From positions 3,744,001 to 3,808,000 of the forward strand of contig OY759353.1 of assembly GCA_963662315.1 (NCBI GenBank): DNA of 64,000 bases. The letters are read 5' to 3'. Positions 20,524 through 36,373 of this stretch are shown piece after piece. The stretch comes from Geopsychrobacteraceae bacterium. GTDB lineage: Bacteria; Desulfobacterota; Desulfuromonadia; Desulfuromonadales; Geopsychrobacteraceae. Each line of letters begins with the position of its first letter. Position 1 is the stretch's first letter. A program made the translations under genes and the position numbers. The notes under the pieces were generated by a model that was given only the letters and a program-made list of their open reading frames with translations, ran no database searches and was not told where the DNA came from.

Positions 20524-20714
20524 GTCAGCCTTATTCAGTTCGTTGTTATCCGGAGTTCCCGGATGACGACCAGTAAACGGAAAAACTGATACTTCAAAGT
20601 CATTGATTAATAAACTCAACGGCCCGCTATCATAGTCGTTAAACAGCTTATAAGCAAGTATGGCGCATCGACTACTGATTTTCTTACAGAAACCTAGCTT
20701 TTGTCACTGATTAT

Positions 20715-21419
20715 TTATTGACCGGGTGCTGGCAGTTCAAAGAGGGTTCCGCGGTAATTAAACAAGGTCGATGTTTCTCTGATCTCGGCAATACTCAGAT
20801 CTGCGGTGATGTTTTCTTTTTCATGGCGTATTGTTCCGTTGATCCTGAGCATGCGCCGGGCCGGGTCAGAGCTGAAAAAATGCAGGGACACCCTAAGAGA
20901 TCCAATATCCCTCTGTAGTGCTGAAGGCAGTTCATCATAAAAGGGAACCTCCTCTGTGGTTGCTGTGCCAGGTGCTGTTGAGGGGATGGAATTCGGCGGC
21001 GACTGAGGGAGAGCTTCTAAAGGAGCGGTTACTTCCTGATGGCGTTGGGGGACAGGTGCGACAATATTCTGGGATTGTTTCTGCACGGGAGTTGGTGCTT
21101 TTGTATTTTTCTGTATGGTCTGGTCTTGTGCCGGTAACTGCTGACGGGTCTGTTTGGCTACCGGTATTGATGGTTGTTTGTCTGCTTTATGAATCTGGTT
21201 GATCGGATCGGAGGCCAGAATTGCAGGCTGCTCCGGCTGACGGCCGATCCACCAGCCACCCATAAGGCTCAACAGCGGAATCAGGATGCAGATAGCGATA
21301 AGAACCCCACGTTTCCGCGCCGGAAAATGGGGAATCAGGATATGTTTGCCCGCTTGCGGTGTCAGGTTGCCACTACGGTTTTCTTCTGATTTTTTAAGAG
21401 CATCAAGAATAAAGGACAT
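20715..21419 (-). CDS. gspB: GspB/ExeB
   Basis: MSFILDALKKSE start, TM, Pro/Gln linker, C-terminal RMLRING. Confidence 0.88.
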   Translation of the reverse strand: MSFILDALKKSEENRSGNLTPQAGKHILIPHFPARKRGVLIAICILIPLLSLMGGWWIGRQPEQPAILASDPINQIHKADKQPSIPVAKQTRQQLPAQDQTIQKNTKAPTPVQKQSQNIVAPVPQRHQEVTAPLEALPQSPPNSIPSTAPGTATTEEVPFYDELPSALQRDIGSLRVSLHFFSSDPARRMLRINGTIRHEKENITADLSIAEIRETSTLFNYRGTLFELPAPGQ

Positions 21420-23065
21420 CAGTTGACCTCAGTATTATCAAGGTGAGGGCCCGGAGCCTGGGTAAGATTGTTCAGATAGATAATTGTTTTGGGGCCAAGC
21501 ACCCCATCCGGGGTTAAGCCGGCTGCAAACTGAAAATGTTTCAGTGCGCCAAGGATCCCGCCAGCCAGGACCGAAGTCGTTTCCTGCCCTGCGTAGTGTC
21601 CGGTTGCCGTAAGTGTTTCTCTGAGCCATGGGATTAATGGGTTTGTTTGTCCCGGATAAACAATACCTGAGTAGTTTTGTGGTGGGTACCACAGGATCCG
21701 GTATTCGCCAAACCAACGGTTCTGCAAGGCTGCAATATTCAGGGTTCTGACATCTCCTGCGGCGCGAAATTCTGCCTTTTCGTTGTGCATGCTGGTGAGC
21801 AGCACAAAAAACTCTTTCCCTGCGTCATCATACAGCGTCAAAAGTGCCGGGCGATTAAGCGCCCGAAGACTGGCGAGGTCTTCCTGGCGGTCATAGCAGC
21901 GTAGACCCGATTCACGTGCGAAGTCACATGGAGTCAGGGATGAATTGCGGTAATTCAGTCCCCACATGGCGGCCAGTTCAGTAAATGCGCTGTCTCGGGT
22001 GTGGCCAAAAGCAAAGTCTGAAGGCCAGGTGAGGATTTCCTGAACCCTCTGCTGAACGGGTTGTGCTTCGCCCGCTTCCTGATCTTTGTTTATGAAGTAT
22101 TTGGCTGGTTCCGATGATTGCTCTGGCGCTGTCTCTACGGTTACTTCAGTGGAGGCCCCTTTTGTAACGGTTGTTGTTAACAGTTGGTAAGATAATCCGG
22201 AAATAATAATAAAGCTGATCAGGGTTGCGAAAATCCAGGGGACGCTTTGTTTACGTCCGGTCCGGTCAAAAATCTCAGCGCACGCCTGACGGACTATGGC
22301 GGGGGTGACCTGGCGTTGCTGCCTGGTGTAGGCCCCTAATAGAGAACGATCGCAAATCAGATTGATCAGGCGCGGAATGCCAAGACTGCGGTTATGAATC
22401 AATCTGATTGCTCGTGGTGTGAAGCAATTTTCATGACTGCCGGCCACCTGAAGGCGGTGAGCTATATAACCCCTGATTTCCTGTTTGTCCAGCGGGCCAA
22501 GGTGATAACGCGCGGTTATCCGTTGGGCCAGTTGCCGCAACTGCGGGCGGTTGATCATGTCACGCAGCTCGGGTTGGCCCAGCAGAATAATCTGCAGTAA
22601 TTTGCGCTTGTCTGTTTCCAGGTTGGTCAACAGCCGCAGTTGCTCCAGAACATCGATGGACAGATTCTGGGCTTCATCGATCAGCAATACCGTTTTACGC
22701 CCTTGGGCATTAGTCTTCAGAAGGTGCTGGTTGATGGTGTCGACCAGGAGCTTGGTCGAATTCGATCCGCTGTGACCGATATGCAACTCATCACAGATGG
22801 TCTGCAGCAGTTCAATAACGCTGATCTTCGGGTTCAGGACAAAAGCCAGGTCGATTTCGGGAGGGATTCTGGTGAACAGGCTTTTACAGATGGTGGTTTT
22901 GCCGGTTCCGACCTCGCCGGTCAGCAGGACAAAGCCGCCATCAGTCTGCAAACCGTAAAGCAAGTGTGCCAGCGCTTCCCGGTGGCTTTCACTCATGTAG
23001 AGAAAACCGGGGTCAGGGGCAATGGAAAAAGGCTTTTCTGTTAGTCCAAAGTAGTCAGTATACAT
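21419..23065 (-). CDS. gspA: GspA/ExeA AAA ATPase with peptidoglycan-binding domain
   Basis: PFSIAPDP, GEVGTGKT, IDEAQ, GQPEL; C-terminal FQ..GL.PDG..GP.T. Confidence 0.93.
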   Translation of the reverse strand: MYTDYFGLTEKPFSIAPDPGFLYMSESHREALAHLLYGLQTDGGFVLLTGEVGTGKTTICKSLFTRIPPEIDLAFVLNPKISVIELLQTICDELHIGHSGSNSTKLLVDTINQHLLKTNAQGRKTVLLIDEAQNLSIDVLEQLRLLTNLETDKRKLLQIILLGQPELRDMINRPQLRQLAQRITARYHLGPLDKQEIRGYIAHRLQVAGSHENCFTPRAIRLIHNRSLGIPRLINLICDRSLLGAYTRQQRQVTPAIVRQACAEIFDRTGRKQSVPWIFATLISFIIISGLSYQLLTTTVTKGASTEVTVETAPEQSSEPAKYFINKDQEAGEAQPVQQRVQEILTWPSDFAFGHTRDSAFTELAAMWGLNYRNSSLTPCDFARESGLRCYDRQEDLASLRALNRPALLTLYDDAGKEFFVLLTSMHNEKAEFRAAGDVRTLNIAALQNRWFGEYRILWYPPQNYSGIVYPGQTNPLIPWLRETLTATGHYAGQETTSVLAGGILGALKHFQFAAGLTPDGVLGPKTIIYLNNLTQAPGPHLDNTEVN

Positions 23066-23526: not shown

Positions 23527-24792
23527 ATGTCTCAAAAGCTAAAACGAGGTTATCGAAAGCTGGGTTGGCAGGTTCTGGCCGTATTGGCAATTGCTCTGCT
23601 TCTTTGGGGCTGTGGTGGAGGAGGAGGAAGTAGTTATGATGAGCCGACGTCTACTCAAACGGCAACGCCACTGATTGAAGCCGCAACTTTGATGGACTGG
23701 TCCAAAGACGGGCTGGTGAATGATGATGGTTTTGAAAACGTCAGAATCCTGCAGGTCGGGACGAGTGACGAATATAATGCTGGCCATGTGCCGGGGGCAT
23801 ACCTCTGGAACAGCAGTTCGGAACTGGTTATGGCCAGTCGCTTGGACGGATTGGCTTTTGAGCCCACCAGTACGGTCCCCGAAGGTGCGATTCTGGATGC
23901 CATGCTGCAGCGCAGTGGTGTCGATTGTGACACGACTATTGTTATCAGTTACCCTTCAACCAAGAATATCTATTATGCCGCGCGGGCCTATTTTACCCTT
24001 CGTTACTGGGGTTTTGGCAAAGATAAAATCAAAGTACTCAATGGTGGTAACAACGGCTGGACTGATGCTGGCTATACCCTGACAACCGAAGCGACAGCGG
24101 AAAAGCCATCTGATTTCAGCGTTCGTGAAAATGGCAGCCTGGGAGCGGATCTCCATGTTTCCATGGGTGAGATGATTGCGGCGGTGGATGCCAACAACGC
24201 AAGTATAACTGCATCTAGTGAGCCCCAGATCAACATTATTCAGCAGACAACCGGCGCGCGTGTCATTGCGAACGCTATAGGACGCTCTTACGGATATTTT
24301 GCTGTCGGTGGCGTTACCACAGGCGGTTATTTTGTCACGCCAACAGAAGCCTTAGCCGCCTTGAAAGACAGTGACGGACCAGCCGATAATCTTACTCTTG
24401 GTGAATTTCATGAAGATTTGCCAAGTATTACTCATTGTGTATCCGGGATGAGCTGTACACCAATCTTTTTCGCTCTTGACGGTTTATTAGGGTTGGATGT
24501 CGCGGTGTTTGATGGTTCCGCCGGCGAATGGAATATCTATCGTGGCGATGCTGCAGGCAGTGACTCTTATATCAACGATGCCTGGAACGTTAACCTGAAC
24601 GGACGTTCCAATGACACCAGCACAGTCAACGCAAATCGCGCGACCCAGATTGATCCGCACCTTAATTTCATTTATCGGACCGTAACCGATTCCGATGCCA
24701 ACCAGATCGAAAAAGAAGACAGTGAATACATGGGATCAGGCACGAGTGATGGTCCAACGTCTCCTAACGATGTTGATCCAAGCGGATGCTAA
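23527..24792 (+). CDS. extH: ExtH-like rhodanese (sulfurtransferase) lipoprotein
   Basis: Lipobox LWGC; GHVPGA and LNGG..W rhodanese motifs; catalytic loop HCVSG; C-terminus PSGC-stop; lies before the porin. Confidence 0.8.
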   Translation: MSQKLKRGYRKLGWQVLAVLAIALLLWGCGGGGGSSYDEPTSTQTATPLIEAATLMDWSKDGLVNDDGFENVRILQVGTSDEYNAGHVPGAYLWNSSSELVMASRLDGLAFEPTSTVPEGAILDAMLQRSGVDCDTTIVISYPSTKNIYYAARAYFTLRYWGFGKDKIKVLNGGNNGWTDAGYTLTTEATAEKPSDFSVRENGSLGADLHVSMGEMIAAVDANNASITASSEPQINIIQQTTGARVIANAIGRSYGYFAVGGVTTGGYFVTPTEALAALKDSDGPADNLTLGEFHEDLPSITHCVSGMSCTPIFFALDGLLGLDVAVFDGSAGEWNIYRGDAAGSDSYINDAWNVNLNGRSNDTSTVNANRATQIDPHLNFIYRTVTDSDANQIEKEDSEYMGSGTSDGPTSPNDVDPSGC

Positions 24793-24865
24793 TTGTTTGT
24801 CGACAGGTTGAGTATCGTCTGTGCGTGAAGCCAGATGGAATAGAGAATCTAAGGAGATGACATTT

Positions 24866-25990
24866 ATGAAGAGATATACGATGGCACGTTTGCTACTGGC
24901 AACCGTTGCGGTGTTTTGCCTGCTGGCAGGATCCGCCTTGGCTGGCCCGACCTGGACTTTTGGCCCTGATGATGAGGGACTGCTAAAAATTGATTACAAG
25001 GGGCAGTTTCAGTTGGTCAGTAGCGATGATGGCACTGATGATACGGTTGAATTTAATTTTCGGCGTAACCGCCTTGCTCTGATGGGGGCCTGGGAAGAAT
25101 CTTTCGGACTTTATGTTCAGACCGAGTACACTGAAGATAATGATTACGCAAGCAGCAACGGTGATAAATTTCAGCTGTTGGACGCGGTATTGCGTTTTAA
25201 AATTCATAATGCTGCAAACCTGTGGATGGGTAAATTCAAACATAACCTGACGCGGGAAAATCTGGAAGCGTGTGAAATGCCCCTGACTTTGGATCGCTCA
25301 GTCTGGCTTCGTGGGCCATACACCGCAACCCGCGACAAAGGGATTGCTTTATGGGGTAACCTGTTTAATGACATTTTCCAGTATCGTCTTGATGCCATGA
25401 ATGGCAGTGATGCATCCGATTCTGGACTGCGTTACAGTGCTCGTGTCCATGTTTCGTTACTCGACCCGGAAAACAGCTATGGTTACAAAGGGACTTACCT
25501 GGGCGAGAAAAAGGTTCTGACGATTGGCGCTGCATATCAGGCCGAAGCAGAAGTCGGGACGGTTAATGATGAGGCGTTCGATTACAGCGCCTGGACGGTT
25601 GATCTTTTTGCCGAATATCCCATTGATAATGTTGGTACCTTTACGTTGTCAGCAGCTTATGTTGATTATGACCTGGATGACGCTTATAAAACTGGAGGCG
25701 CAACTGGCGACCTGATCGGCGTCAATGGTCAGAAAAATGGTGGATATGTTAAAGCCGGTTACCTGCTGCCATCCCTCCCTCTGCAACTTTTTGCCCGCAC
25801 TGAAGGCTGGTCCTTTGCCAATCTGAATGGTGTGTACGACCAGGAAATTTCTGTTTTGGGTGTTGGTTTCAATTACTATCTGCGTGGCCAGAACCTGAAG
25901 GTAACGGTTGAGTACAACACCACCGAATACGACAAAGGTGGTGTCGACGACCTCGACAGGCTGGTTGCCCAGATGCAGGTCATTTTTTAA
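24866..25990 (+). CDS. extI: ExtI-like outer-membrane porin (phosphate-selective porin-like)
   Basis: Signal peptide, FNFRRNRL, TRENLEACE.PLTLDRS, GYKGTYLGEKKVLTIG, C-terminal Phe. Confidence 0.85.
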   Translation: MKRYTMARLLLATVAVFCLLAGSALAGPTWTFGPDDEGLLKIDYKGQFQLVSSDDGTDDTVEFNFRRNRLALMGAWEESFGLYVQTEYTEDNDYASSNGDKFQLLDAVLRFKIHNAANLWMGKFKHNLTRENLEACEMPLTLDRSVWLRGPYTATRDKGIALWGNLFNDIFQYRLDAMNGSDASDSGLRYSARVHVSLLDPENSYGYKGTYLGEKKVLTIGAAYQAEAEVGTVNDEAFDYSAWTVDLFAEYPIDNVGTFTLSAAYVDYDLDDAYKTGGATGDLIGVNGQKNGGYVKAGYLLPSLPLQLFARTEGWSFANLNGVYDQEISVLGVGFNYYLRGQNLKVTVEYNTTEYDKGGVDDLDRLVAQMQVIF

Positions 25991-26015
25991 ATCAGATACA
26001 TAAAATTTGCATTAT

Positions 26016-26047
26016 GCCGGGAAGTATGGGGACTTCTCGGCTTTTTT
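26016..26047 (+). terminator. Intra-operon terminator-like hairpin after the porin gene
   Basis: GCCGGGAAGT/ACTTCTCGGC stem plus T run. Confidence 0.65.
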
Positions 26048-26072
26048 ACTCAGTCCTAGACAAGGAGTGGCT

Positions 26073-26303
26073 ATGAAAAAAACAACAAGTCTGATCGCCG
26101 TTCTGGTATTCGCTTTGAGTATTGCCGGTAGCGCTTGTGCAGAAGATTATAAAGGGAAAGTTGAAAAAGTTGACGGTAAGCTGATCACCATCAAGATCAC
26201 CAAAGGGAAAGCTTCTGATTTTGAAGTCGGTGACAAGGTCATGATTGAAACAAAGGATGATAAGCCGAAGAAAAAAGGTGGCGTTACGTTGCAAGGTTGT
26301 TAA
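26073..26303 (+). CDS. extJ: ExtJ-like small periplasmic protein with C-terminal Gly-Cys
   Basis: Signal peptide, small beta-rich core, ends KKKGGVTLQGC-stop; follows the porin. Confidence 0.75.
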   Translation: MKKTTSLIAVLVFALSIAGSACAEDYKGKVEKVDGKLITIKITKGKASDFEVGDKVMIETKDDKPKKKGGVTLQGC

Positions 26304-26341
26304 TGCACATTTTTTAACCCTTTATCTGACGAGTGTTGTCT

Positions 26342-26938
26342 ATGCCTGCTGTCGGTGGGATGCAAAACCAGCAATACTGCACCGCAATGGCTCGGCTGTA
26401 TCGCTTGCTTGCCAAAGCGGTAAACTATCCGGAGCGTACCTGGCTGACCCGGGACTACTGGAAGACGCTTGCCCTGACCTGGGCTGAAATCTCAGCCGGG
26501 CAAATGACTGTTCATCTGCCGGATTACCCGCAGGATGAACAGTCGTTTGAGGCGCTTCAGGTCGAATATACCCGTCTGTTTATTAATGCGATCCCTCATG
26601 TTGTGGCTCCTATGTATGGCTCGGTTTATCTTGAACCCGACGCAGTGCTGTATGGCAGCAGTGCGGAACAGGTCAAGGCTTTTTATCAGCAATGTGATTT
26701 CAGCCTGAACGGGGCAGGTGATATTCCGGATTTTTTGGGGACCGAGTTGAAATTTCTGGCCCTGCTGATGGATGAGGAGCGTGAAGATGATGTCGAACGA
26801 TTTCTGTCTCAGCATTTTCGCCCCTGGTTCAAACTGTTCAAGCAACGCGTCACCACTGCCGCTCAGCATCCATACTTTTTAGTGCTGATTCACCTGATCA
26901 ACTTTTTTACTAAGGAGGAAATGGCTCATGGCAATTAA
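26342..26938 (+). CDS. TorD/DmsD family molybdoenzyme chaperone
   Basis: EYTRLF, APMYGSVYL, PD....EL.FLA.L, HF.PW; start uncertain. Confidence 0.88.
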   Translation: MPAVGGMQNQQYCTAMARLYRLLAKAVNYPERTWLTRDYWKTLALTWAEISAGQMTVHLPDYPQDEQSFEALQVEYTRLFINAIPHVVAPMYGSVYLEPDAVLYGSSAEQVKAFYQQCDFSLNGAGDIPDFLGTELKFLALLMDEEREDDVERFLSQHFRPWFKLFKQRVTTAAQHPYFLVLIHLINFFTKEEMAHGN

Positions 26939-29168
26939 AATGACCCGGCGCAGATTTTTGCAATCCACGACCTGTGCAGCTGCAGTTCTTCCTTTTGCGG
27001 GTCTGGTTCAAGCCGATGATACGTTTGTCAAAGTTCCGTATGCAGCTCCTGGCAGTCTGGCTGGAACCCAAACCGTGACGGGGGGTGTTTGTGAAATGTG
27101 CTTCTGGCGCTGTCAGATCGTTGGCAAGGTCAGAAATGGACGTTTGCTGAAACTTGAAGGAAACCCTAAAAGTATCGACAACGGCAAAAGTATCTGTGCT
27201 CGTGGTAACGCCGGGGTCAAACTGCTGTATGATCCGGATCGTTTGAAGTTCCCGCTGAAAAATGTCGGCAAACGCGGTGCCCCGCAGTGGAAACGGATCT
27301 CCTGGGAGCAGGCTCTCGATGAATGCGCGCAAAAGCTTAAGGGCACTATCGACTCTTATGGTCCCCAGGGCATCGCTATTTTCCCCCACGGGTCATCGGC
27401 CAAGTATCCGATGACATTTTTTGAAGATGTTGTCGGGACGCCGAACAATTCAGAAGCTTCCTTCTTTCAGTGTCGTGGTGCGCGTGATACCGCTTATCTG
27501 GCAACACTGGGAGTTCCGGCGGGTGAACATGTCGACATGTCTAATGCCAAGGTGATCTTTTTACTGGGAAGCCACCTGGGTGAAAATGTTCACGTATCTC
27601 ACCTGAAGCGCTATCTCAAAGGGTTAGAAAACGGTGCCAAGCTGATTGCTGTTGATCCGCGTTTTTCTGCGGCAGCAGCCAAGGCTGACATCTGGGTTCA
27701 GATCAAGCCGGGAACCGATATCGCATTCTTGCTGGCGATCATGAACTATCTGGCGGTGAATGAAAAATACAATGTTGAGTATGTCGATGATAATGGCGAT
27801 GGTTTTGATGATTTCTGTGAAGGGATTGCTCACGCCACTCTCGAATGGGCTGCGGGGATCTGCGATATTCCAGCCAAACAGATCAAGCAGGTTGCTGATC
27901 TGCTTGCTGACAATTCTCCCAACGTCTCAATCCACCCCGGCCGCCACACTAGCTGGTATGGCAACGATTTTCAGCGTGAGCGGGCGATGGCCTGCCTGAC
28001 CGGTATGCTGGGTGCTATCGGCAGTGTCGGTGGTTTCGTGCGTCCGATTGGTCCCAAAACCGGTAAGTTCGGTTGGCCGCATCCGATGAAAGAACACGCC
28101 GAGGAGCATGCCTTGCACCGCATGGCTGGTGTCCATAAGTTCGCTCCCCCGGGGACTCCGACCGATCTGATTCGTAACGCTGCCGTCAGTGGCAAGCCCT
28201 ATCCCATTAAGAGCTGCGTTATCTGGGGACAAAACCCGCTTCAGACTATCCCCAATCAGGCTTTGACCATCAAAATGCTGCAGCATATGGATTTCGTCAT
28301 GGTCTGCGACATCATGCCGACTGATATCACCATGTATGCTGATATCCTGTTGCCCGAGGTTTCCTACCTGGAGCGCTACGATCATATTCAGAAAGGCACG
28401 CAGTGGGACTTTGCCGCTGAACATCAGCAGTATATTGCGCCAAGGATGCCATTGGTGTCACCGACTGCGGCCGATCATGAGCGCAAAGACTCGGTCTGGA
28501 TTACCAACGAGCTGGCCAAGCGTCTCGGGTATGCCGAGCATATCCCGGCACAAAGCGCGGAAGAGATGGTCGATATTATACTTAAAGGGGCTGACTTGTC
28601 CTTGGCCAGCGTTCGCAAGGAGGAGGGCATTCATATCCAGGAGGGTGAAGATCCCTACGATACCGAACTGGATGTTGTCTTTTACAGTGATGCGCTGGAA
28701 GAAGCTGGTTTCCCACCAATTCCGAAATATACTCCGGTTCCGGAACCGCCGCCCGGCTATGCCCGGCTGGTTTATGGGCGTTTACCGACCCATACCTTTA
28801 ACCGTACCCAGAACAATGCCTGGCTCCATAATGAATCACCTCGCAATCCTGTCTGGCTTAACGATAAATGTGCCAGAAAAATGGGCCTCAAAGACGGGGA
28901 TGAGGTGGAGCTGATCAATGCCGAAGGGATAAAGTCACGGACCTCGACCATTGTCAAAGTGACACCCGGTATTCGTGAGGATACGGTCTTTATGGCGCAT
29001 GGGTATGGCACCATGAATTCGGCAATGACCATCGGGTGTGGTGCCGGAGTGGATGATCAGAGTCTGATCAGCACCTTGTCAATTGATCCTGAGACCGGAA
29101 CACATGGTATGCGTAATGACTTTGTCCAGCTGATTAAGAATGGCAAGGTCATACCGGTTAAGGCCTGA
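26928..29168 (+). CDS. Tat-exported Mo/W-bisPGD oxidoreductase catalytic subunit, PsrA/PhsA/SrrA-like
   Basis: TRRRFLQ Tat motif; FS0 CEMCFWRC...CARG; putative Cys ligand in FFQCRG; ADILLP...LER; HTFNRTQN. Confidence 0.9.
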   Translation: MAIKMTRRRFLQSTTCAAAVLPFAGLVQADDTFVKVPYAAPGSLAGTQTVTGGVCEMCFWRCQIVGKVRNGRLLKLEGNPKSIDNGKSICARGNAGVKLLYDPDRLKFPLKNVGKRGAPQWKRISWEQALDECAQKLKGTIDSYGPQGIAIFPHGSSAKYPMTFFEDVVGTPNNSEASFFQCRGARDTAYLATLGVPAGEHVDMSNAKVIFLLGSHLGENVHVSHLKRYLKGLENGAKLIAVDPRFSAAAAKADIWVQIKPGTDIAFLLAIMNYLAVNEKYNVEYVDDNGDGFDDFCEGIAHATLEWAAGICDIPAKQIKQVADLLADNSPNVSIHPGRHTSWYGNDFQRERAMACLTGMLGAIGSVGGFVRPIGPKTGKFGWPHPMKEHAEEHALHRMAGVHKFAPPGTPTDLIRNAAVSGKPYPIKSCVIWGQNPLQTIPNQALTIKMLQHMDFVMVCDIMPTDITMYADILLPEVSYLERYDHIQKGTQWDFAAEHQQYIAPRMPLVSPTAADHERKDSVWITNELAKRLGYAEHIPAQSAEEMVDIILKGADLSLASVRKEEGIHIQEGEDPYDTELDVVFYSDALEEAGFPPIPKYTPVPEPPPGYARLVYGRLPTHTFNRTQNNAWLHNESPRNPVWLNDKCARKMGLKDGDEVELINAEGIKSRTSTIVKVTPGIREDTVFMAHGYGTMNSAMTIGCGAGVDDQSLISTLSIDPETGTHGMRNDFVQLIKNGKVIPVKA

Positions 29169-29209
29169 TAGCGTGCTATTAACACTTTGAAACGACATGG
29201 AGGAATCCA

Positions 29210-30025
29210 GTGAGCCAATATGGAATGATCATCGATCTCAACAAGTGTATCGGCTGCCATGCCTGTTCAATTGCCTGTCGGGCCGAATGGGAGGTACCCA
29301 CCGGCAAAGACTCTGAGGGGCGCCAGCAGCGGCGCAACTGGGTCGAGCGCCTGGGACCGAGCAGCACCCCTCAGGGGCTGGCTTATACCTATTATCCCGG
29401 CTTATGTAATCATTGTGATGAGCCTTCCTGTGTGGACGTCTGTCCGGCCGATACCGTGACCATGACTTTTACAGCCAAGGACGGTACGACCAAAACCATG
29501 GATGTTGCTGCGACCTGGAAGGATCCGTTTGATGGAACGGTGCAGATCGATAAAGAGCGTTGTATCGGTTGTGGTGCCTGTGCTGAAAGCTGCCCTTACA
29601 CTGCGCGCTATCTGAACGAAACGGGGGATGAACCAAAGGCGGACAAATGCTCATTCTGTGTTGAACGAGTCGCCTTGGGAGCCGAGCCTGCCTGTGTCCA
29701 GACCTGTTTGGCAGGAGCCCGAATCTTTGGTGAGGTGAATGATTCCGCATCGCAGGTTGCTGCATATATAAAAAATGGTGCAATCAGGCTGGAGTCGGAA
29801 GCCGTCAAAATTGGTCCTAATGTTCGCTATTTCGGCAGCAAGCGGGATCTCTACCTGCTTGACAAGACCGCAACGCCACAACAACTGGCCCAGGTTAATC
29901 AGCGTCGCCTGCTCATGGCTCAGATAGCGAAAAAAACGACACTCAGTTTTAAAGGTATGGGGCTCATAGGAATGGCCGGATTTCTTTTAGCGGACACTGA
30001 TAAAGATTCTGGTAGTAGAGATTAA
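29210..30025 (+). CDS. 4x[4Fe-4S] electron transfer subunit (PsrB/NrfC-like) with C-terminal extension
   Basis: CIGCHACSIAC, CNHCDEPSCVDVCP, CIGCGACAESCP, KCSFC...PACVQTC. Confidence 0.92.
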   Translation: MSQYGMIIDLNKCIGCHACSIACRAEWEVPTGKDSEGRQQRRNWVERLGPSSTPQGLAYTYYPGLCNHCDEPSCVDVCPADTVTMTFTAKDGTTKTMDVAATWKDPFDGTVQIDKERCIGCGACAESCPYTARYLNETGDEPKADKCSFCVERVALGAEPACVQTCLAGARIFGEVNDSASQVAAYIKNGAIRLESEAVKIGPNVRYFGSKRDLYLLDKTATPQQLAQVNQRRLLMAQIAKKTTLSFKGMGLIGMAGFLLADTDKDSGSRD

Positions 30026-30040
30026 CCTGTTTGTTTTGAT

Positions 30041-30082
30041 GGTCAAAAGTCACTCATCAATAGCAATGGGTGACTTTTGACC
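30041..30082 (+). terminator. Strong hairpin after the Fe-S subunit gene
   Basis: GGTCAAAAGTCAC...GTGACTTTTGACC inverted repeat. Confidence 0.7.
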
Positions 30083-30227
30083 GTTTAATGGACTTACACG
30101 AATTGTCTTTGTTTTGCCCTGCATTATTCCATGCTACACTGTTTTCATTCCTGTCCTCATAATCATGAACCAGTAGCTGCCAATGTGTTTGACCGCTTCT
30201 CTGCCACGGTGAGATGACGATACGCTT

Positions 30228-32069
30228 ATGCGCCATTCAGGGTTAACTCTACTGTTTTTACTCTTGACCTGCCTGCTGGTGGTTGGCTGTCAGGCTCCAG
30301 TTGGTGATGGCTCGTCCTGCGCGCAATGCCATGTCGGTTTGGAAACTGTTTCGGATATTCATGGCCGCTGTGTCGACTGCCATGGCGGAGATCCGCAAGC
30401 TACGGCTGAAAAAGCCTCTCATCGCGGCATGTTCGGGCCGAAAAATCCTGCCGCTCCCGAATCCTGGGAAAAGACCTGTGGTCGTTGCCATCCCTATCAA
30501 CTGGACCGGGTTCGCGCCAATTTAATGTATACCAACACCGGTATCATCAATGGCGCCCAGGCGACCTGGGAGGGTATTGACGGTAACCTGTACGCAACGC
30601 GCCAGGAGGAATTGCCATCAGCAGTGGGGGAGCCTGTGAAGCTGAAACCGGTTGCGGAGTTGGATAACCTGGCTGGGGAACTTTACCGCAAGACCTGTTC
30701 CTTGTGTCATATCGGCAGTGACACCAATATCCTCTGGGCAGCGAGCCACGCATCTGGATGCGGGGCCTGTCATTTCCCTTACAACGACAATGCCACCTAT
30801 CAGGGGGGGGATCAAACCGTTAAAGGGGACTGGCCTCATTCGGCAAGTCATAAAATGGAAAATCTGCCTGATAACAAGGTCTGTGCGCGTTGTCACAGCC
30901 GCAGCGGGCGAATTGCCCTGAGCTATGAAGGGCGTAATGACGGGAATAACAGTCTGGTCCCAACCCGAAACGGGGATATCGGTCCTGACATTGTCAGTGG
31001 CCCACGCAACCTGACTCGTATTTCCGCAGATATCCACCATGACAAGGGCCTTGAATGTATCGATTGCCATACCTCTCGGGATATAATGGGGGATGGCTAT
31101 GCTTATGAACATCTTTATCAGCAGGTTGAAGTTTCCTGCCAAGACTGCCATGGCGCGGCAACCGCGTTTCCTGCAAGCGAAAAAATTGCGCGGGAGAATG
31201 ATGAGGTCTTACGGGAATCGGCATATTACCCGCGCCAGATGCGTCAGGGCGATGCCATGGTTCTGACCGCCAAAGGGCGCAAGTACGCCAATGTGTTTGT
31301 CTCTGAAGAGAAGGTCTGGGTGCAGGGAAAACGTTCTGGTAAGCTGCATGAAAGTAAGGTCATCACTGCAACTCCGGAACATACGATCAAAGGGCATGAG
31401 CGTTTGGAATGCTATACATGTCATTCCCGTTCTGTGGCTCAGTGCTATGGATGCCACACCGAATATGACCAGCGTCAAGAGAGTACCGACTATATTAAAA
31501 ATAAGAAAACTCCGGGTAAGTTCACCGAAACCGAGGATTACCGCACCCTGTATCCGTTTCCGCTGGCGTTAAATCAACGTGGCCGGATTTCACCGGTGAC
31601 ACCAGGCTGTCAGACGTTTGTTTCGGTGATCAACCCACAGGGGGAGAAAGTTGCCGATGAATATGTGGCGGTTTATAAAGGTAAGCCGCAACTGCGCTTT
31701 GCGCCGTTTTTCGGGCATAATGTCGGGGGCAGAGCCATCGGCTGCCGTGAGTGTCATGCAAACCCGGCTTTTCTGGGTTTTGGGCAGCATGTCAGTGCCG
31801 GGAACAATATTGAAGCAACCCTGCTGTGTGAAAAATCTGACAGTAAACCGCTGGATGGCTTTATCACCATGACCGCAGGTCAGGTTAAGGCTTTTTCGGC
31901 CATTACGAGGGATAATTCCAGACCACTGAATACCGCAGAGGTCAGGAAAGTTTTGGCTGTCAATTTGTGTCTTGTTTGTCACGATAACCCTAAAGATCCG
32001 ATTTACCAGAAGGAACTGGATTACGATGTTCTGGATTCTTGTCTTAAGCGCGCTGCTGTCATTCAGTAA
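30228..32069 (+). CDS. extM: ExtM-like 12-heme c-type cytochrome lipoprotein
   Basis: 12 CxxCH motifs counted; lipobox VVGC. Confidence 0.85.
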   Translation: MRHSGLTLLFLLLTCLLVVGCQAPVGDGSSCAQCHVGLETVSDIHGRCVDCHGGDPQATAEKASHRGMFGPKNPAAPESWEKTCGRCHPYQLDRVRANLMYTNTGIINGAQATWEGIDGNLYATRQEELPSAVGEPVKLKPVAELDNLAGELYRKTCSLCHIGSDTNILWAASHASGCGACHFPYNDNATYQGGDQTVKGDWPHSASHKMENLPDNKVCARCHSRSGRIALSYEGRNDGNNSLVPTRNGDIGPDIVSGPRNLTRISADIHHDKGLECIDCHTSRDIMGDGYAYEHLYQQVEVSCQDCHGAATAFPASEKIARENDEVLRESAYYPRQMRQGDAMVLTAKGRKYANVFVSEEKVWVQGKRSGKLHESKVITATPEHTIKGHERLECYTCHSRSVAQCYGCHTEYDQRQESTDYIKNKKTPGKFTETEDYRTLYPFPLALNQRGRISPVTPGCQTFVSVINPQGEKVADEYVAVYKGKPQLRFAPFFGHNVGGRAIGCRECHANPAFLGFGQHVSAGNNIEATLLCEKSDSKPLDGFITMTAGQVKAFSAITRDNSRPLNTAEVRKVLAVNLCLVCHDNPKDPIYQKELDYDVLDSCLKRAAVIQ

Positions 32070-33252
32070 TGCTGCTCTGGCAATTGAGCCTCAGCTGACC
32101 GGTGGACATGCTGGTCTCGCCTGTTCCAGTTGTCATGGTGACGGGGTGGTTGATGGCCGTAACCTGTCTTCTGCCGTGAGCAGGGCCCGGGGGTGTACTT
32201 CGTGCCACCAGGGTTACGATCGAATCTTTGACCAGGTGATGACCACCCGTGACGCGGAAAAACAATTTTGTAAGCGGAGCTTTGGCAAGGTAGACGCTGA
32301 CTTTTTCAGTAATAACTGCAACGCGTGCCATGTCTCTGATTGCCTTGATTGCCACGGCCCCAATGGCCACCAACTGGTAGTGGGGGGGCAGGATAACTGT
32401 CTGGCGTGTCATAAATCATACTTTGTCGGTCATGAGTACCTGGGGCTGGCTCCCCGGGAAGACCATCCCCGTTATCAACGGGGTCCAGAAAGTCATGGTG
32501 ATCACTATCTGAAAATGCGGCCGGATATTCATTATGAAAATGGGCTGGAGTGTCGAGACTGTCATTCCATGCAGAGTTTTTTTGCTGGGCAAGCGTCAGC
32601 AAAAAACTGCCAGGATTGCCATCAGCCTGACATGCGGGTCGTGGAACACCGGATCTCCGCTCATATGGAGAAGCTTGAGTGCTATGCCTGCCACTCCGCC
32701 TGGGGGGCACAGGAATATGGTAGTTTCTTTTTACGCTTTAGCAAAGATAAGCAAGATTCTGCTGTGAAGGATTTCAAGGCGCCTTCTTTAAATGGGCCCT
32801 ATCTGCAGCGGGCCTACTTGCGTCGGCAGGATGCCCCGCCCTTGGGATATAACCAGCGTGGTAAACTCAGCCCGCTTCGCCCGCAATTTATAAGCTATTA
32901 TTCAGACCTGCGCGGTGATGGATTTCCCGTGGATGAAAATCAGTTTATGGTTGCCGAGTGGAAAGCCTTTTTCCCGCATACTGTCCGGCGTGGAAGCGTT
33001 ATGTGTGACAGTTGTCATAACGATGCCCGGCGCTATTTACTTGAAGCCCCTGAAGACAGAATTTATCGTATTGATCTTGACGGTCTTGGTCTGTCGTCGT
33101 TCTGGAACCAGCAGGGGCAGACCCTGATTAATGGATCGTTTGTCAGTTCTGAACAATTTAGCGAACTCACCAAAAAGGATGCGGCCTACACCAGGGCGTA
33201 TGTGGAACGATGGCAGAAACTGATCGGTCACGGCGACGCTTCATCAGAGTGA
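32026..33252 (+). CDS. 9-heme periplasmic c-type cytochrome (ExtN/CbcN-like)
   Basis: Signal peptide; 9 CxxCH motifs counted. Confidence 0.88.
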   Translation: MFWILVLSALLSFSNAALAIEPQLTGGHAGLACSSCHGDGVVDGRNLSSAVSRARGCTSCHQGYDRIFDQVMTTRDAEKQFCKRSFGKVDADFFSNNCNACHVSDCLDCHGPNGHQLVVGGQDNCLACHKSYFVGHEYLGLAPREDHPRYQRGPESHGDHYLKMRPDIHYENGLECRDCHSMQSFFAGQASAKNCQDCHQPDMRVVEHRISAHMEKLECYACHSAWGAQEYGSFFLRFSKDKQDSAVKDFKAPSLNGPYLQRAYLRRQDAPPLGYNQRGKLSPLRPQFISYYSDLRGDGFPVDENQFMVAEWKAFFPHTVRRGSVMCDSCHNDARRYLLEAPEDRIYRIDLDGLGLSSFWNQQGQTLINGSFVSSEQFSELTKKDAAYTRAYVERWQKLIGHGDASSE

Positions 33253-33605
33253 TGGCTCTGATCGGTGCTTCGGGAGTGTTTTTGTGGCGCTTCCTGGTGC
33301 CCCGCCCCAAGGTTCAGGGGCGTGAACTGCTGGAAATTAAGCGTGATGAAGTCCCGCTGCGCGGCGCCTTGGTCTATAAACGTGCCCGTGTGGTTGTGAT
33401 CAGAAGCGAACAGGAGATCTATGCCTTAAGCCTGGTTTGCCCACATCTGGGATGTACCGTCAACGTGACGGCAGAACAATTGGTCTGTCCTTGCCATGGC
33501 AGCGCCTTTGACCGGGAAGGAAATGTCCTGAAAGGACCATCGCCTAAACCACTGCAGCGTCTTGAAGTGAGGGAACGTGGCGATAAACTGGTGGTGCTGG
33601 TATGA
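33210..33605 (+). CDS. Rieske [2Fe-2S] protein with Tat anchor
   Basis: SRRRFI; CPHLGC and CPCHGS. Confidence 0.93.
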   Translation: MAETDRSRRRFIRVMALIGASGVFLWRFLVPRPKVQGRELLEIKRDEVPLRGALVYKRARVVVIRSEQEIYALSLVCPHLGCTVNVTAEQLVCPCHGSAFDREGNVLKGPSPKPLQRLEVRERGDKLVVLV

Positions 33606-34240
33606 AAAGCGAAGATGACTTTGTCAAAGAATTTGTCAAGCACCTGTTCCCGCGGGTGGTGTTGAAGCGCAATCTGACGCTGTCTTATACCTTCTGCCTG
33701 GGAGGTCTTGCTTTTACGGCCATGCTGGTATTAATCGTTTCCGGTATTCTGCTGATGTTCCACTATCAGCCAGATACCGACCGCGCCTTTCTGTCTATTC
33801 TCTATATCGAAAACGACGTGCCAGGGGGGTGGTATATCCGTAACCTGCACCGATTGTCTGCCAACTTTTTCCTGGTTCTGATCTTTCTCCATACACTGCG
33901 GGTGCTGTTGACCGGAGCCTATCGCAAACCGCGTGAGCTGAACTGGGTGATCGGTTTTGGCCTGTTGTGCCTGGCCCTGTTCGAAGGGTATACCGGTTAT
34001 CTGTTACCCATGGATCAACTGGCGCTGTGGGCTACCCAGACGGGCATGAACCTGCTGGCAACGCTTCCATTTGGTGAATTGTTGCGCAGCTTTCTGGTAC
34101 CTGATGATGTCGGCCAGCCCATGTCGCTGATCCGCTTTTACGTGCTGCACATTGCTGTACTTCCGGTGACCATGTTGATCCTGTGCATGCTGCACTTTTA
34201 TCGCATCCGCAAAGACAAAGGAGTTTTGCCATACCTATGA
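33602..34240 (+). CDS. extP: Cytochrome b6-like subunit (ExtP-like)
   Basis: FCLGG, four His ligands, TGYLLP.DQ. Confidence 0.88.
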   Translation: MKSEDDFVKEFVKHLFPRVVLKRNLTLSYTFCLGGLAFTAMLVLIVSGILLMFHYQPDTDRAFLSILYIENDVPGGWYIRNLHRLSANFFLVLIFLHTLRVLLTGAYRKPRELNWVIGFGLLCLALFEGYTGYLLPMDQLALWATQTGMNLLATLPFGELLRSFLVPDDVGQPMSLIRFYVLHIAVLPVTMLILCMLHFYRIRKDKGVLPYL

Positions 34241-34644
34241 ACGACTATGTCAAATCCTCCCCTTATTTTTTCCGGATCATCAAGATTTCCTTTGCCCTGC
34301 TTGTGGTGATTTTGCTGCTGCTGGCCTTTTTCATCGATGCTCCCCTGCAGGGCCCTGCTGATATCAGCCGGGTGCCGAATCCGTCCAAGTCCGCCTGGTT
34401 TTTGATGTGGACCCAGGAGCTGGTCAGCTACTCGAGTCTGATGGTTTATTTGATCCTTGCTATCGGTTTACTGTTTCTCTGCTTGCCCTGGTTGCCTGTG
34501 AGTAAAACGGCAGAGGCGGCCAGCTGGTTTAGCCGGGAGCAGAAAAGTGTCAATATTATTGTCGTACTGACTTTTGTGGCGATTGTGCTGCTGACGGTCA
34601 TCGCAGTTTATTTTCGGGGCGAAAATTGGGCGCTCGTATTCTGA
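34237..34644 (+). CDS. extQ: Cytochrome b subunit IV-like membrane protein (ExtQ-like)
   Basis: APLQGPAD...PNPSKSAWF; three TM helices; ATGA overlap. Confidence 0.8.
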   Translation: MNDYVKSSPYFFRIIKISFALLVVILLLLAFFIDAPLQGPADISRVPNPSKSAWFLMWTQELVSYSSLMVYLILAIGLLFLCLPWLPVSKTAEAASWFSREQKSVNIIVVLTFVAIVLLTVIAVYFRGENWALVF

Positions 34645-35456
34645 TTATAGCGGCTCTCTGGCTTGTTATTGCCGCTACGACAGGCGCACAAGAGCGCAAT
34701 GACTGCCTTGCCTGCCATCCTGTCCATTATGTTGAACAGGGGCGCTGTGTCACCTGCCATCGCGGCTTTGCCGGGACCAGGCGCATCAACATCGCTCATG
34801 AGGGGTTGATTGCCGGGCGCTTTGCCGCTTTTACGCTAGCCGGGAGCGAGGTTGTCGAAGAAGGGACGCAACTGCTGAAACAGTACGCCTGTCGACGCTG
34901 TCACATCAGTCAGGACCTGGGCAATCGTCTGGCTGCAAATCTTGACCTGTCCCAGCAGCAGAGAACCCCTGAAGAGTTGGATGAGAGTATTCGCAATCCG
35001 GTCCTTTTTATGCCGCAGTTTCATTTTTATGCAAAACAGCGCATCGCTCTGGTCAACGCGATACTGTGGGGGGGACGTCAGGTGGAGATTCCCGAACAGG
35101 AGCCGCCCCTGGTGGTTCATTTTGAAGGGGAGACAACAACCCGGGAATTTGCTTTTGAGAAGTATTGCGGCAAATGCCACCGTGCGCTGACCGAAAAATA
35201 CGGTGGTTTGGGTGCAAGCCTGACCGGGCCCAACTTGTCGGGCCTGTTCAGCGAGTTTTATCCGACCAGCTTCGGTGAGGATAACCAACCCTGGACCCCT
35301 GAGAACCTCAAGAAATGGATCAAAAATCCGCGCAGCGTCAACAACTTTGCCCGTATGCCGCCGCTGGTGGTTAATGATGCTGAAATTGACCGCATTACTC
35401 AGGAATTGCAGGTCAAGGCGTCAACTCCTGCGGTGCGGGCCGCTCACCTGCAGTAG
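34626..35456 (+). CDS. Tetraheme c-type cytochrome (ExtS-like)
   Basis: CLACH, CVTCH, CRRCH, CGKCH; GPNL and RMPP class I features. Confidence 0.82.
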   Translation: MGARILIIAALWLVIAATTGAQERNDCLACHPVHYVEQGRCVTCHRGFAGTRRINIAHEGLIAGRFAAFTLAGSEVVEEGTQLLKQYACRRCHISQDLGNRLAANLDLSQQQRTPEELDESIRNPVLFMPQFHFYAKQRIALVNAILWGGRQVEIPEQEPPLVVHFEGETTTREFAFEKYCGKCHRALTEKYGGLGASLTGPNLSGLFSEFYPTSFGEDNQPWTPENLKKWIKNPRSVNNFARMPPLVVNDAEIDRITQELQVKASTPAVRAAHLQ

Positions 35457-35458
35457 CT

Positions 35459-36148
35459 CTATTCTCTGGTCTCTCCTCCCCATGCCTCCAGGCCCCAGGA
35501 TCTGAATCGCGGTAACCATGAAGAAGGAGTCTTTGGTGTCGTGGGTTGTGCAGGTCCTTTTTTGTTCGTTTGTAGCGTTTTTCGTGTGTCCTTTTGCGCA
35601 GGAGGAAATTCGACCGCCTCTGCTGTGGAATCCGTGTTGACTGTTGCTTGCAAAGACGCTTTGGGTTTTTCAGTTGTGGCTGGCAGCGTGGGGCTGTCAT
35701 CAGTACTGATTGGTTCCGAGCAAGTTGTCAATGTTGCAAATATTTCACGGATGGCGAAAGCGGGATCAGGCTTGTCCTCGCCCTGAGGAAACACGTAATC
35801 CACCTGGTTTATGGGGGCGTTTGATCTAGAGGGATAAAAGTCCAGGTGCAGGCGCCGTAATCTTTGGACCCTTTGACTCTCCTGGGTTAAATCTTCTCTC
35901 ACCTCAGGGGTGTAAGTGATAAGCAAGTCCGGCTGAGCAGGGTTTTCTGGACTGGTTATGCCCAGGGAAGTTAATTCCTGACGAATCAGTTCGCCGAAAT
36001 GCCACTGGTCCGGTTGAGTCGTTTTGACTGTAGCAAAACGGACCTTCTGCCAATTGATGTTTTCTGTACGATGGATTGACGTTGCCGAGCAGCCGAGCAG
36101 GGTGATGAGAAATAAACTACAACTGGCCAAGGCAGTCTGTTTCTTCAT
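35459..36148 (-). CDS. Hypothetical lipoprotein
   Basis: Lipobox LLGC; Thr/Pro-rich linker; GGAG RBS. Confidence 0.65.
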   Translation of the reverse strand: MKKQTALASCSLFLITLLGCSATSIHRTENINWQKVRFATVKTTQPDQWHFGELIRQELTSLGITSPENPAQPDLLITYTPEVREDLTQESQRVQRLRRLHLDFYPSRSNAPINQVDYVFPQGEDKPDPAFAIREIFATLTTCSEPISTDDSPTLPATTEKPKASLQATVNTDSTAEAVEFPPAQKDTRKTLQTNKKGPAQPTTPKTPSSWLPRFRSWGLEAWGGETRE

Positions 36149-36373
36149 GGCATCTCCGATTATTCAGAGGGAACAGGAGTCATTCATGGTCAGGAGCAAA
36201 CGCTGTGCCGTGGCACTCACAGCATCATAAATTGATCCGGCGGGGAATGCTATGATTCTGATAGTTTCTCTGTGTTTTTAATCATTTTTTGCTATGATGC
36301 CAACAGTGTAGTCTGTTTTATTGTGGATGGCGAGGAAAACACATTTCTTCTTTTACATGACATGTAAATCTCT

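Follow-up and report, generated by a model that had tools for sequence, protein, structure and literature searches.

Gene content of the locus

We analysed a 64,000-nucleotide stretch of DNA from a Geopsychrobacteraceae bacterium (assembly GCA_963662315.1, contig OY759353.1, positions 3,744,001 to 3,808,000 of the forward strand; hereafter the window), in which 12 open reading frames (ORFs) follow each other head to tail on the plus strand from position 23527 to 35456. As summarized in Table 1, these genes form an ext cluster of the kind known from Geobacter, in which three genes for a molybdoenzyme of the MOLY family (molyC, molyA and molyB) occupy the slot between extJ and extM, where relatives carry mccSep, the gene of a five-haem selenoprotein that reduces polysulfide.

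Table 1. Genes and intergenic features of the ext cluster (positions in the window; aa, amino acids; Tat, twin-arginine translocation; Mo-bisPGD, molybdenum-bis-pyranopterin guanine dinucleotide; FeS, iron-sulfur)
Feature	Position	Strand	Product or description	Model match
extH	23527..24792	+	Rhodanese-like outer-membrane lipoprotein, C-terminal Gly-Cys tail	NCBIfam ExtH 322 bits (cut-off 200); Pfam Rhodanese
extI	24866..25990	+	OprO/P-like outer-membrane porin	NCBIfam ExtI 577 bits (cut-off 150); Pfam Porin_O_P
extJ	26073..26303	+	Small secreted protein: signal peptide, beta-hairpin domain, Lys-rich tail with Gly-Cys end	NCBIfam ExtJ 73.5 bits (cut-off 52.5)
molyC	26333..26938	+	TorD/DmsD-family maturation chaperone	Pfam Nitrate_red_del 72 bits; NCBIfam DmsD 62 bits, under cut-off
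molyA	26928..29168	+	Tat-exported Mo-bisPGD catalytic subunit, PsrA/PhsA family, MOLY orthogroup; 746 aa	
molyB	29210..30025	+	Four-cluster FeS subunit, 271 aa, without signal peptide	Pfam Fer4_11
Hairpin	30038..30085	+	20-bp perfect stem directly 3' of the molyB stop; terminator- or attenuator-like	
-10-like box CCATGCTACACT	30129..30140	+	5' of extM; conserved in MOLY-type and MccSep-type loci	
extM	30228..32069	+	12-haem c-type cytochrome with lipobox; 12 CXXCH	NCBIfam ExtM 1057 bits (cut-off 800)
extN	31972..33252	+	9-haem c-type cytochrome; 9 CXXCH	NCBIfam ExtN 636 bits (cut-off 200)
extO	33210..33605	+	Rieske [2Fe-2S] protein, 131 aa	Pfam Rieske 54 bits (Pfam only)
extP	33602..34240	+	Cytochrome b, N-terminal (b6-like) half	Pfam Cytochrome_B 144 bits; NCBIfam ExtP 238.5 bits
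extQ	34237..34644	+	Membrane subunit	NCBIfam ExtQ 204 bits (cut-off 150); no Pfam match
extS	34626..35456	+	4-haem c-type cytochrome; 4 CXXCH	NCBIfam ExtS 356 bits (cut-off 100)

A first-pass annotation, made from the sequence alone, had listed here 12 same-strand genes for a rhodanese lipoprotein, a porin, a small Gly-Cys-tailed protein, a TorD chaperone, a Tat-exported molybdoenzyme with its FeS subunit, cytochromes of 12, 9 and 4 haems, a Rieske protein and a split cytochrome b. Every item of this description agreed with the ORFs and with their Pfam and NCBIfam matches; the CXXCH motifs reproduced the three haem counts, and the small protein, ExtJ, ends in QGC, as ExtH ends in SGC. The flanks had been called ext genes, and all their matches to the ext hidden Markov models (HMMs) lay over the cut-off but that of ExtP (238.5 versus 290 bits), ExtP still being the best-scoring family for that protein. 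The alignment onset of the NCBIfam models and the ORF sequences placed the starts of extI, extJ, extN and extQ at about 24866, 26073, 32026 and 34237, respectively, and the ATG of extH is preceded by an AGGAGG-like ribosome-binding site. ExtI of the window is the sole ExtI match in its own genome.

MolyA carries the Pfam domains Molybdopterin, Molydop_binding and Molybdop_Fe4S4 and a twin-arginine leader (MTRRRFLQ), and MolyB contains 16 cysteines, with four ferredoxin-type Cys groups, its C-terminal extension ending in a short conserved hydrophobic stretch that is borderline as a membrane helix (maximum Kyte-Doolittle value 1.55 over 17 residues). A Pfam scan found no NrfD/PsrC-type membrane subunit among the 12 proteins. 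The Pfam and NCBIfam matches revealed that a Rieske protein (ExtO, with CPHLGC and CPCHGS boxes and the twin-arginine leader SRRRFI), a b6f-like split cytochrome b, of which ExtQ would be the second half, and c-type cytochromes are encoded together, a combination predicted to oxidise quinol. The 131-aa Rieske protein (33210-33605) matches no ext-specific NCBIfam model, and the 426-aa multihaem cytochrome (31972-33252) scored 637 bits with NF040968, described as iron-sulfur subunit ExtO, and 636 with NF040967, ExtN; NF040968 looks mislabelled.

The slot holds a MOLY trio

The MOLY cluster, MolyC-MolyA-MolyB, is a named, uncharacterised gene set and a candidate marker of sulfur disproportionation (PMC9676032, PMC12998232). 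MolyA is told apart from PhsA by phylogeny and by an adjacent chaperone that replaces the anchor (PMC12998232), and according to a proteomic study the role of MOLY has not been deciphered (PMC13490349).

Among solved structures, the best relative of the window's MolyA was PsrA of Thermus thermophilus (2vpw_A; E 4e-132, residues 50-737), followed by acetylene hydratase (1e-50), and that of MolyB was PsrB (2vpw_B; E 1.5e-29) over residues 1-189 only, which leaves in MolyB an extra C-terminal part of 80 residues. Cys182, His154 and Arg339 of MolyA, invariant in a four-sequence alignment, align with Cys173, His145 and Arg332 of Thermus PsrA, whose roles they may share. The best NCBIfam model for MolyA was thiosulfate reductase PhsA (NF012032) at 417 bits, short of the 694-bit cut-off for a PhsA equivalog. 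Compared with PsrABC of T. thermophilus (2VPW), the window thus has a PsrA-like subunit with the aligned Cys ligand of molybdenum and a PsrB-like subunit, but it lacks the quinol-oxidising PsrC (NrfD) anchor; the electron donor is presumably the Rieske/cytochrome b complex together with the multihaem cytochromes.

A catalytic A subunit and an FeS subunit with an adjacent TorD/DmsD chaperone and no anchor, which is how a survey published in the ISME Journal (ISME J) in 2026 words its definition of MOLY (PMC12998232), are all found in the window. An exact-sequence look-up identified the trio of Desulfogranum mediterraneum (L048) as WP_028582911, WP_028582912 and WP_028582913, which the same survey enters as MolyC, MolyA and MolyB of that species (Supplementary Table 1; PMC12998232). 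The window's MolyA is 65% identical to WP_028582912.1, and both fall into a 74-sequence ingroup with a support of 100 (this and the following trees come from quick LG+G4 searches without bootstraps). The link to the MOLY orthogroup OG1 runs through this one anchor sequence, the family placement combining HMM and PDB ranks with one accession-anchored MOLY member. The chaperone-A-B order without a transmembrane anchor gene recurred in 72 of 76 relatives' loci, the remaining four ending at contig borders, and the family was commonest in Desulfobulbales, which include sulfur disproportionators.

Published MOLY clusters (Allioux 2022; ISME J 2026) share with the window the TorD-family chaperone, the Tat-exported A subunit, the FeS subunit, the C-A-B order and the missing anchor. 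They differ from it in that the window's trio is embedded in an ext cluster, by genes for a rhodanese, a porin, ExtJ and Rieske, cytochrome b and multihaem proteins, and in that they occur in disproportionators with the Dsr/Apr/Sat pathway, whereas DsrA and AprA were not found in the window's genome. The combination had been put forward as undescribed. Its molybdenum trio taken alone is the published MOLY cluster, but for the arrangement of ext genes with a molybdoenzyme no description was found in the literature searched, in which ExtH, ExtI and molybdopterin never stood together (subscription journals lay outside the search). The names ExtM, ExtN, ExtO and ExtP appeared in one paper only, and of 15 papers listed for the MOLY names four deal with this cluster, a fifth (PMC9948710) also containing the term. 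The ISME J survey mentions no porin and no desulfuromonad in its available text, no porin, rhodanese, Rieske protein, ExtI or cytochrome b in its available supplements, and no Desulfuromusa, Desulfuromonas or Geobacter in the available strain table (PMC12998232); in the available text of the MccSep paper, "gene cluster" is absent and "molybd" occurs once (PMC13510729).

In-place replacement of MccSep by MOLY

The ext cluster was first tied to selenite and tellurite reduction through ExtI, whose deletion impairs both in Geobacter sulfurreducens (PMC5877670), and it ranks among the outer-membrane conduits of Geobacter (PMC6148476). The G. sulfurreducens genes extHIJKLMNOPQS (GSU2940-2930) have the same order and families as those of the window (ExtH, ExtI, ExtJ, ExtM, ExtN, a Rieske protein, ExtP, ExtQ and ExtS; PMC5877670), and the Gly-Cys tails are kept in the window. 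The two clusters differ in the haem motifs of ExtN (9 in the window versus 10 reported for Geobacter), in the upstream gene (LysR ahead of extHIJKL according to Jimenez Otero et al., PMC6148476, and no LysR gene but type II secretion system (T2SS)-like genes in that place here) and, above all, in the slot, since the window has no MccSep, in the locus or in the genome, and three MOLY genes in its place.

The first-pass annotation had noted that the Geobacter cluster carries the selenocytochrome ExtKL after extJ. In August 2026, Mihara and colleagues reported that ExtKL is one selenoprotein, MccSep, that it reduces polysulfide, that it is needed for growth and sulfide production on elemental sulfur (S0), and that it also supports selenite-dependent methyl viologen oxidation; their study leaves open how sulfur passes the outer membrane and what donates the electrons (PMC13510729). 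With ExtKL identified as MccSep, a polysulfide reductase for S0 respiration, the main substrate is more likely to be sulfur than selenium.

The slot gene of G003, a genome from the window's own genus, has one in-frame TGA, encodes the published peptide GHSIPDGUPTPNR and matches the solved MccSep structures 9wt8/9wt9 with E 4e-198, while a same-genus MccSep used as query (TGA read as U) had no match in the window's genome. MOLY has replaced mccSep in situ: the MOLY-type genomes and the MccSep-type G003 have the same genes on either side of the cluster (AAA-ATPase and T2SSB upstream, a lipoprotein and a sigma-54 activator downstream), and the upstream AAA gene also borders the cluster in three MccSep-type genomes of other genera. 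Lost selenocysteine capacity was considered as the cause of the swap and rejected, SelB scoring over its cut-off in 5/5 genomes of the genus, MOLY-type and MccSep-type alike. A distant MccSep homologue (G047:C139:1589-2590; 35% identity, E 1.8e-47, one in-frame TGA) was seen in a genome without ExtM, and MccSep is present in Desulfobulbales and Nitrospirota as well.

At the junctions, extJ and molyC lie about 30 nt apart, and there is an overlap of molyC with molyA. The hairpin behind molyB folds with -33.5 kcal/mol (z -6.8; 0/200 shuffles fold as well), and in G004 and G003 hairpins of unlike sequence stand at the matching position, behind molyB and mccSep, respectively. The -10-like box, which occurs once in the window and was conserved in an alignment of eight MOLY-type and MccSep-type loci, would be a promoter. 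Given that window and mccSep-type loci of relatives share a hairpin and this box between the reductase gene and extM, the cluster probably comprises two transcription units, extHIJ with the reductase genes and extMNOPQS, regardless of the type of reductase. G003 grouped with G004-G006 in the trees of ExtI (support 98) and ExtM (97) but with the window and G001 in the tree of concatenated ExtN-S (100), and the MOLY-type genomes formed one group in none of the quick trees. This discordance hints at recombination inside the locus and at repeated exchange in the slot.

One kind of reductase per slot in the order

Within the window's order, ExtM was found in 66 of 233 genomes, in 65 of them over the model cut-off, and after exclusion of three genomes with too little upstream DNA the 62 loci retrieved made 63 with the window; MccSep was called in a genome at E at most 1e-40. 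The arrangement extH-I-J-mccSep-extM was widespread (31 loci), extH-I-J-molyC-A-B-extM was seen in five loci of one genus only (the window, G001, G004, G005 and G006), and extH-extI-ExtJ-like-PsrA-PsrB-NrfD-extM was seen in three loci of two families (G019, G156 and G179). Seventeen loci (family f23 and G050) read extI then extM directly, or extI-extJ-extM; four, of genus g48 in family f23, have extM behind TetR or housekeeping genes (TetR in 3 of the 4) and no extHI; and three end at a contig border. A slot reductase is therefore present in 39 loci (31 mccSep, 5 MOLY and 3 PsrABC), none of which holds two kinds.

Complementarity was also seen at the genome level. MccSep was found in 55 of the 66 ExtM-positive genomes, and it was not found anywhere in the genome in 8/8 genomes with a molybdenum enzyme in the slot (5 MOLY and 3 PsrABC); the other three of the 11 genomes without a match were G174 (84% complete, with a Psr-like match), G050 (split ExtM) and G110 (80% complete). 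Position, synteny and this complementarity support the first-pass proposal that the catalytic module was swapped for a Psr-family molybdoenzyme.

Further arrangements were noted in the same survey. In family f23 the pair extJ-mccSep is unlinked from extH-extI-extM (L140-L145), with two copies in G108 and G117-G119, and six f23 genomes also carry a stand-alone MOLY trio. In G050 (L019, G050:C30), in which MccSep was not found, the next gene after extI-extJ is extM, whose product gives a match in two pieces, and this may be a decaying cluster. As for a selenocysteine-containing Psr in G156, the genome search flagged one in-frame TGA, the aligned ORF has none, and no claim is made.

Either MccSep or a molybdoenzyme across the class

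An even sample of 401 genomes of the class was searched for MolyA-like proteins (E at most 1e-140), ExtM and MccSep, and the results were cross-tabulated by hand; the sampled genomes are related to one another, and no statistical claim is made. Among 107 ExtM-positive genomes in four families outside the order, 38 had MccSep only, 66 had a Psr- or MOLY-like enzyme only, one had both (G261) and two had neither (G373, and G425, which is 78% complete). Forty loci (L146-L185) with a molybdenum enzyme and extM on one contig within 8.3 kb were retrieved, and in 40/40 extM is preceded, on its own strand, by the enzyme, mccSep being absent from the locus. Seven of these loci encode PsrA-PsrB-NrfD and 33 encode PsrA, then a 1.25-kb gene, then the FeS subunit; extH-extI stand in between in eight. 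In L168, the only locus scanned in full, genes for a DUF3373 outer-membrane protein, a triple-rhodanese protein, PsrA, NrfD, an FeS subunit and a chemoreceptor precede extM.

These Psr-type operons resemble the window in placing a Psr-family enzyme ahead of extM in the same orientation, in genomes where MccSep was not found, and in having rhodanese genes and small Gly-Cys-tailed ORFs nearby. They differ from it in that their enzymes are only 39-43% identical to MolyA and have an NrfD anchor, and in that most lack the extH-extI-extJ set ahead of the enzyme. MOLY-type enzymes (66-68% identity) were found in seven genomes of genus g73, not adjoining extM; in this genus MOLY is linked to ExtOPQS. 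The DUF3373 protein (L168 10225-12246, L146 6646-8310; Pfam 467-503 bits) comes first in Psr-type operons, in the place of the ExtI porin, and ends in an aromatic residue, as outer-membrane barrels do.

The class-wide either/or pattern, taken with the swap, ties the ExtMNOPQS module to sulfur-reducing enzymes in general. This module is presumably the Cbc6 of Geobacter reviews, which list it without a known role.

It could be argued that the MOLY trio landed by chance after mccSep had been lost and has no working tie to the ext proteins. The trio is a self-contained cassette that occurs in many unrelated contexts, such as directly after ftsZ in Desulfuromusa kysingii, where it stands alone and an ExtJ-like ORF is missing, and in the window a hairpin sets it off from extM. 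We regard a chance landing as highly improbable, however, as the arrangement is kept in five species-level genomes, whose MolyA proteins are 81-94% identical (ExtH, 33-79%), only 30 nt lie between extJ and molyC, other molybdenum reductases entered the same slot independently (3 loci), and the complementarity with MccSep holds across the class. Moreover, in three named metagenome-assembled genomes (L068, L085 and L087) a rhodanese gene, an ExtJ-like gene and molyC-A-B are followed directly by ExtO-P-Q-S, L068 and L085 also having an ExtI-like porin gene.

Gly-Cys tails of ExtH and ExtJ

In 21/21 aligned ExtH orthologues, the rhodanese Cys304, E395/D398/Y401 and the terminal Cys421 were invariant; a motif E-x-E-D-x-E-Y is conserved, and the lipobox Cys29 was kept in 90% or more of the 21. 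ExtJ starts with a signal peptide, followed by a domain of some 30 residues and then a Lys-rich linker, and its terminal Gly-Cys was invariant in 37/37 aligned sequences. The AlphaFold2 model of ExtJ, of low confidence (pLDDT, the predicted local distance difference test, 64.7), is a hairpin with a disordered tail, and in a protein atlas ExtJ-family clusters scored 0.87-0.89, under the 0.9 line and hence leads only, with weaker CusF/DUF1344 leads at 0.76-0.77. A complex prediction for ExtI and ExtH reached 0.10 against a mark of 0.32, which counts neither for nor against binding. In ten loci (L003, L004, L006, L008, L010-L012, L102, L107 and L110) ExtH is a single ORF of about 820-840 aa composed of two ExtH-like halves, with lipobox and terminal Gly-Cys kept.

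ExtJ stays beside the reductase and not beside the porin. Family f23 has an empty slot, and an ExtJ-like Gly-Cys ORF immediately precedes the unlinked mccSep gene in 6/6 cases examined there. ExtJ-like ORFs likewise stand ahead of the slot enzymes PsrABC and MOLY; stand-alone MOLY trios come without ExtJ. Since ExtJ is kept beside three unrelated or distant enzymes, its role is more likely tied to the substrate than to cofactor maturation.

We reasoned that ExtH and ExtJ, whose flexible tails end in an invariant Gly-Cys, could act as a protein-borne relay akin to the swinging arm of SoxY, taking up extracellular sulfane sulfur via the ExtI porin and passing it to the periplasmic reductase at hand (MccSep, MolyAB or PsrABC), a tentative idea that is more doubtful than the assignment of the reductase below. 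If it were true, the reductive enzyme that has long been sought in S0 metabolism would be MOLY, with electrons from a Rieske/cytochrome b and multihaem chain and not from a PsrC-type anchor, and relatives would exchange the reductase slot as a recombination cassette.

ExtJ-like proteins by PsrABC or by MOLY-ExtOPQS (L009, L136, L054, L068, L069, L085 and L087) are about 93-100 aa long, with a duplicated N-terminal domain and an MQGC or LQGC end. Small Gly-Cys-ended ORFs of 107-121 aa without a match to the ExtJ model lie inside Psr-type operons beside extM in further families of the class (L146 6269-6634, L175 11159-11515 and L149 1842-2165), and small proteins with such tails may accompany periplasmic sulfur reductases more widely.

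A probable polysulfide or S0 reductase

From gene content and context, we consider it probable that the locus is an ext-type cluster for S0/polysulfide respiration in which MolyAB, with MolyC, replaces MccSep as the terminal polysulfide/S0 reductase. MolyC would hold MolyA until the Mo-bisPGD cofactor is in place, and the Tat system would export MolyAB together, as MolyB lacks a signal peptide and would travel with MolyA. The ExtO/ExtP/ExtQ Rieske-cytochrome b complex would oxidise menaquinol, and electrons would pass through the haem chains of ExtS, ExtN and ExtM to the four FeS clusters of MolyB and the Cys-ligated molybdenum site of MolyA, where polysulfide or protein-bound sulfane sulfur would be reduced to sulfide. 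The rhodanese lipoprotein ExtH and the porin ExtI are predicted to bring sulfur across the outer membrane, and ExtJ may ferry it to the reductase on its terminal cysteine; entry by porin and rhodanese, carriage on Cys tails and a Rieske/cytochrome b supply had been put forward in the first-pass annotation, and all three are kept here as predictions. Psr of Wolinella works with the sulfur carrier Sud, to which the window's rhodanese, encoded near the reductase, can be likened.

The absence of the sulfate-reduction branch fits a respiratory, reductive role. DsrA and AprA were found neither in 5/5 genomes of the genus (99-100% complete) nor in Desulfuromusa kysingii, both being found in the control Desulfogranum mediterraneum, so a reversed sulfate-reduction branch is not possible in these MOLY genomes.

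Several observations weigh against this assignment. Seven genomes of the order (G138 and six of genus g48) hold MccSep and a stand-alone MOLY trio, so that the two are not always alternatives and may differ in substrate; the first-pass expectation that extKL and the molybdoenzyme would exclude each other between extJ and extM held for loci, none of which has both, and not for these genomes. Away from any ext gene lie 68 of the 76 MOLY trio loci, and the hairpin and promoter-like box between molyB and extM, present likewise in mccSep loci, leave room for separate regulation of the two halves. The redox potentials of Rieske centres usually lie far above that of the polysulfide/sulfide couple, and downhill transfer along the proposed path is therefore not obvious, an energetic weak point that applies equally to MccSep in Geobacter. 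Lastly, polysulfide, thiosulfate and selenite reductases are inseparable by sequence within the PsrA/PhsA/SrrA family (PMC10100899).

The last point bears on a different substrate for the same architecture, with MolyAB reducing thiosulfate, tetrathionate, sulfite or selenite/tellurite in respiration or detoxification. Phylogeny does not resolve substrate among PsrA, PhsA and SrrA, which are one family (PMC10100899), the best NCBIfam match of MolyA is PhsA at 417 bits, and Dissulfuribacter cultures on hydrogen/sulfite had higher levels of MolyA (PMC13490349). To these are added the impaired selenite and tellurite reduction of the ExtI deletion (PMC5877670), the selenite-dependent activity of MccSep (PMC13510729) and the seven genomes with MOLY and MccSep together. 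Such a substrate is nevertheless unlikely in our judgement: the PhsA score is well under its 694-bit cut-off, and the ISME J 2026 tree sets PhsA (OG3) and TtrA (OG9) apart from MolyA (OG1) (PMC12998232). The displaced enzyme, furthermore, is a polysulfide reductase, and the other enzymes by extM are PsrA-NrfD-FeS sets with multi-rhodanese proteins. A PsrA-NrfD-FeS enzyme with a rhodanese is the classical polysulfide set-up.

The reverse direction has been considered for MOLY as well: oxidation of sulfide to S0 by the trio had been proposed before, according to Allioux et al. (PMC9676032). MolyAB would then convert sulfide to S0 or polysulfide and deliver electrons into the cytochrome chain, as proposed for oxidisers or disproportionators of the Desulfobulbales, the group in which the family is commonest. 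For the window this is improbable, because the enzyme replaced is a reductase needed for S0 respiration, DsrA and AprA, which a full sulfur-oxidising or disproportionating route requires, were not found in the 5/5 genomes of the genus, and the normal flow of electrons in Rieske/cytochrome b complexes is from quinol to c-type cytochromes.

Reduction of polysulfide or S0 by MolyAB would connect two lines of work from 2026, on MccSep as the S0 polysulfide reductase of Geobacter and on MOLY as the best candidate marker of disproportionation, which are not joined in the searchable literature. The locus is a natural swap of MccSep for MOLY inside an otherwise conserved gene set, and this swap gives MOLY a specific, testable function, polysulfide/S0 reduction, and names a candidate electron supply (ExtMNOPQS) and candidate accessories (ExtH, ExtI and ExtJ). 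The occurrence of MOLY in genomes without Dsr/Apr argues against its use as a disproportionation-specific marker.

Neighbouring genes

Directly upstream of the ext cluster, genes for a T2SS-associated ExeA-like AAA ATPase, T2SSB and T2SSC occupy 19606-23065 on the minus strand. A search for sigma-54 promoters 5' of extH gave none at up to 2 mismatches, matches across the window being no commoner than chance. Downstream, a gene for a sigma-54-dependent activator (36374-37804, plus strand) is divergent from that for a 229-aa lipoprotein-like protein (35459-36148, minus strand), and a sigma-54 promoter-like site with 1 mismatch (36195-36210) lies on the same strand as the latter gene, which the neighbouring activator more likely serves.

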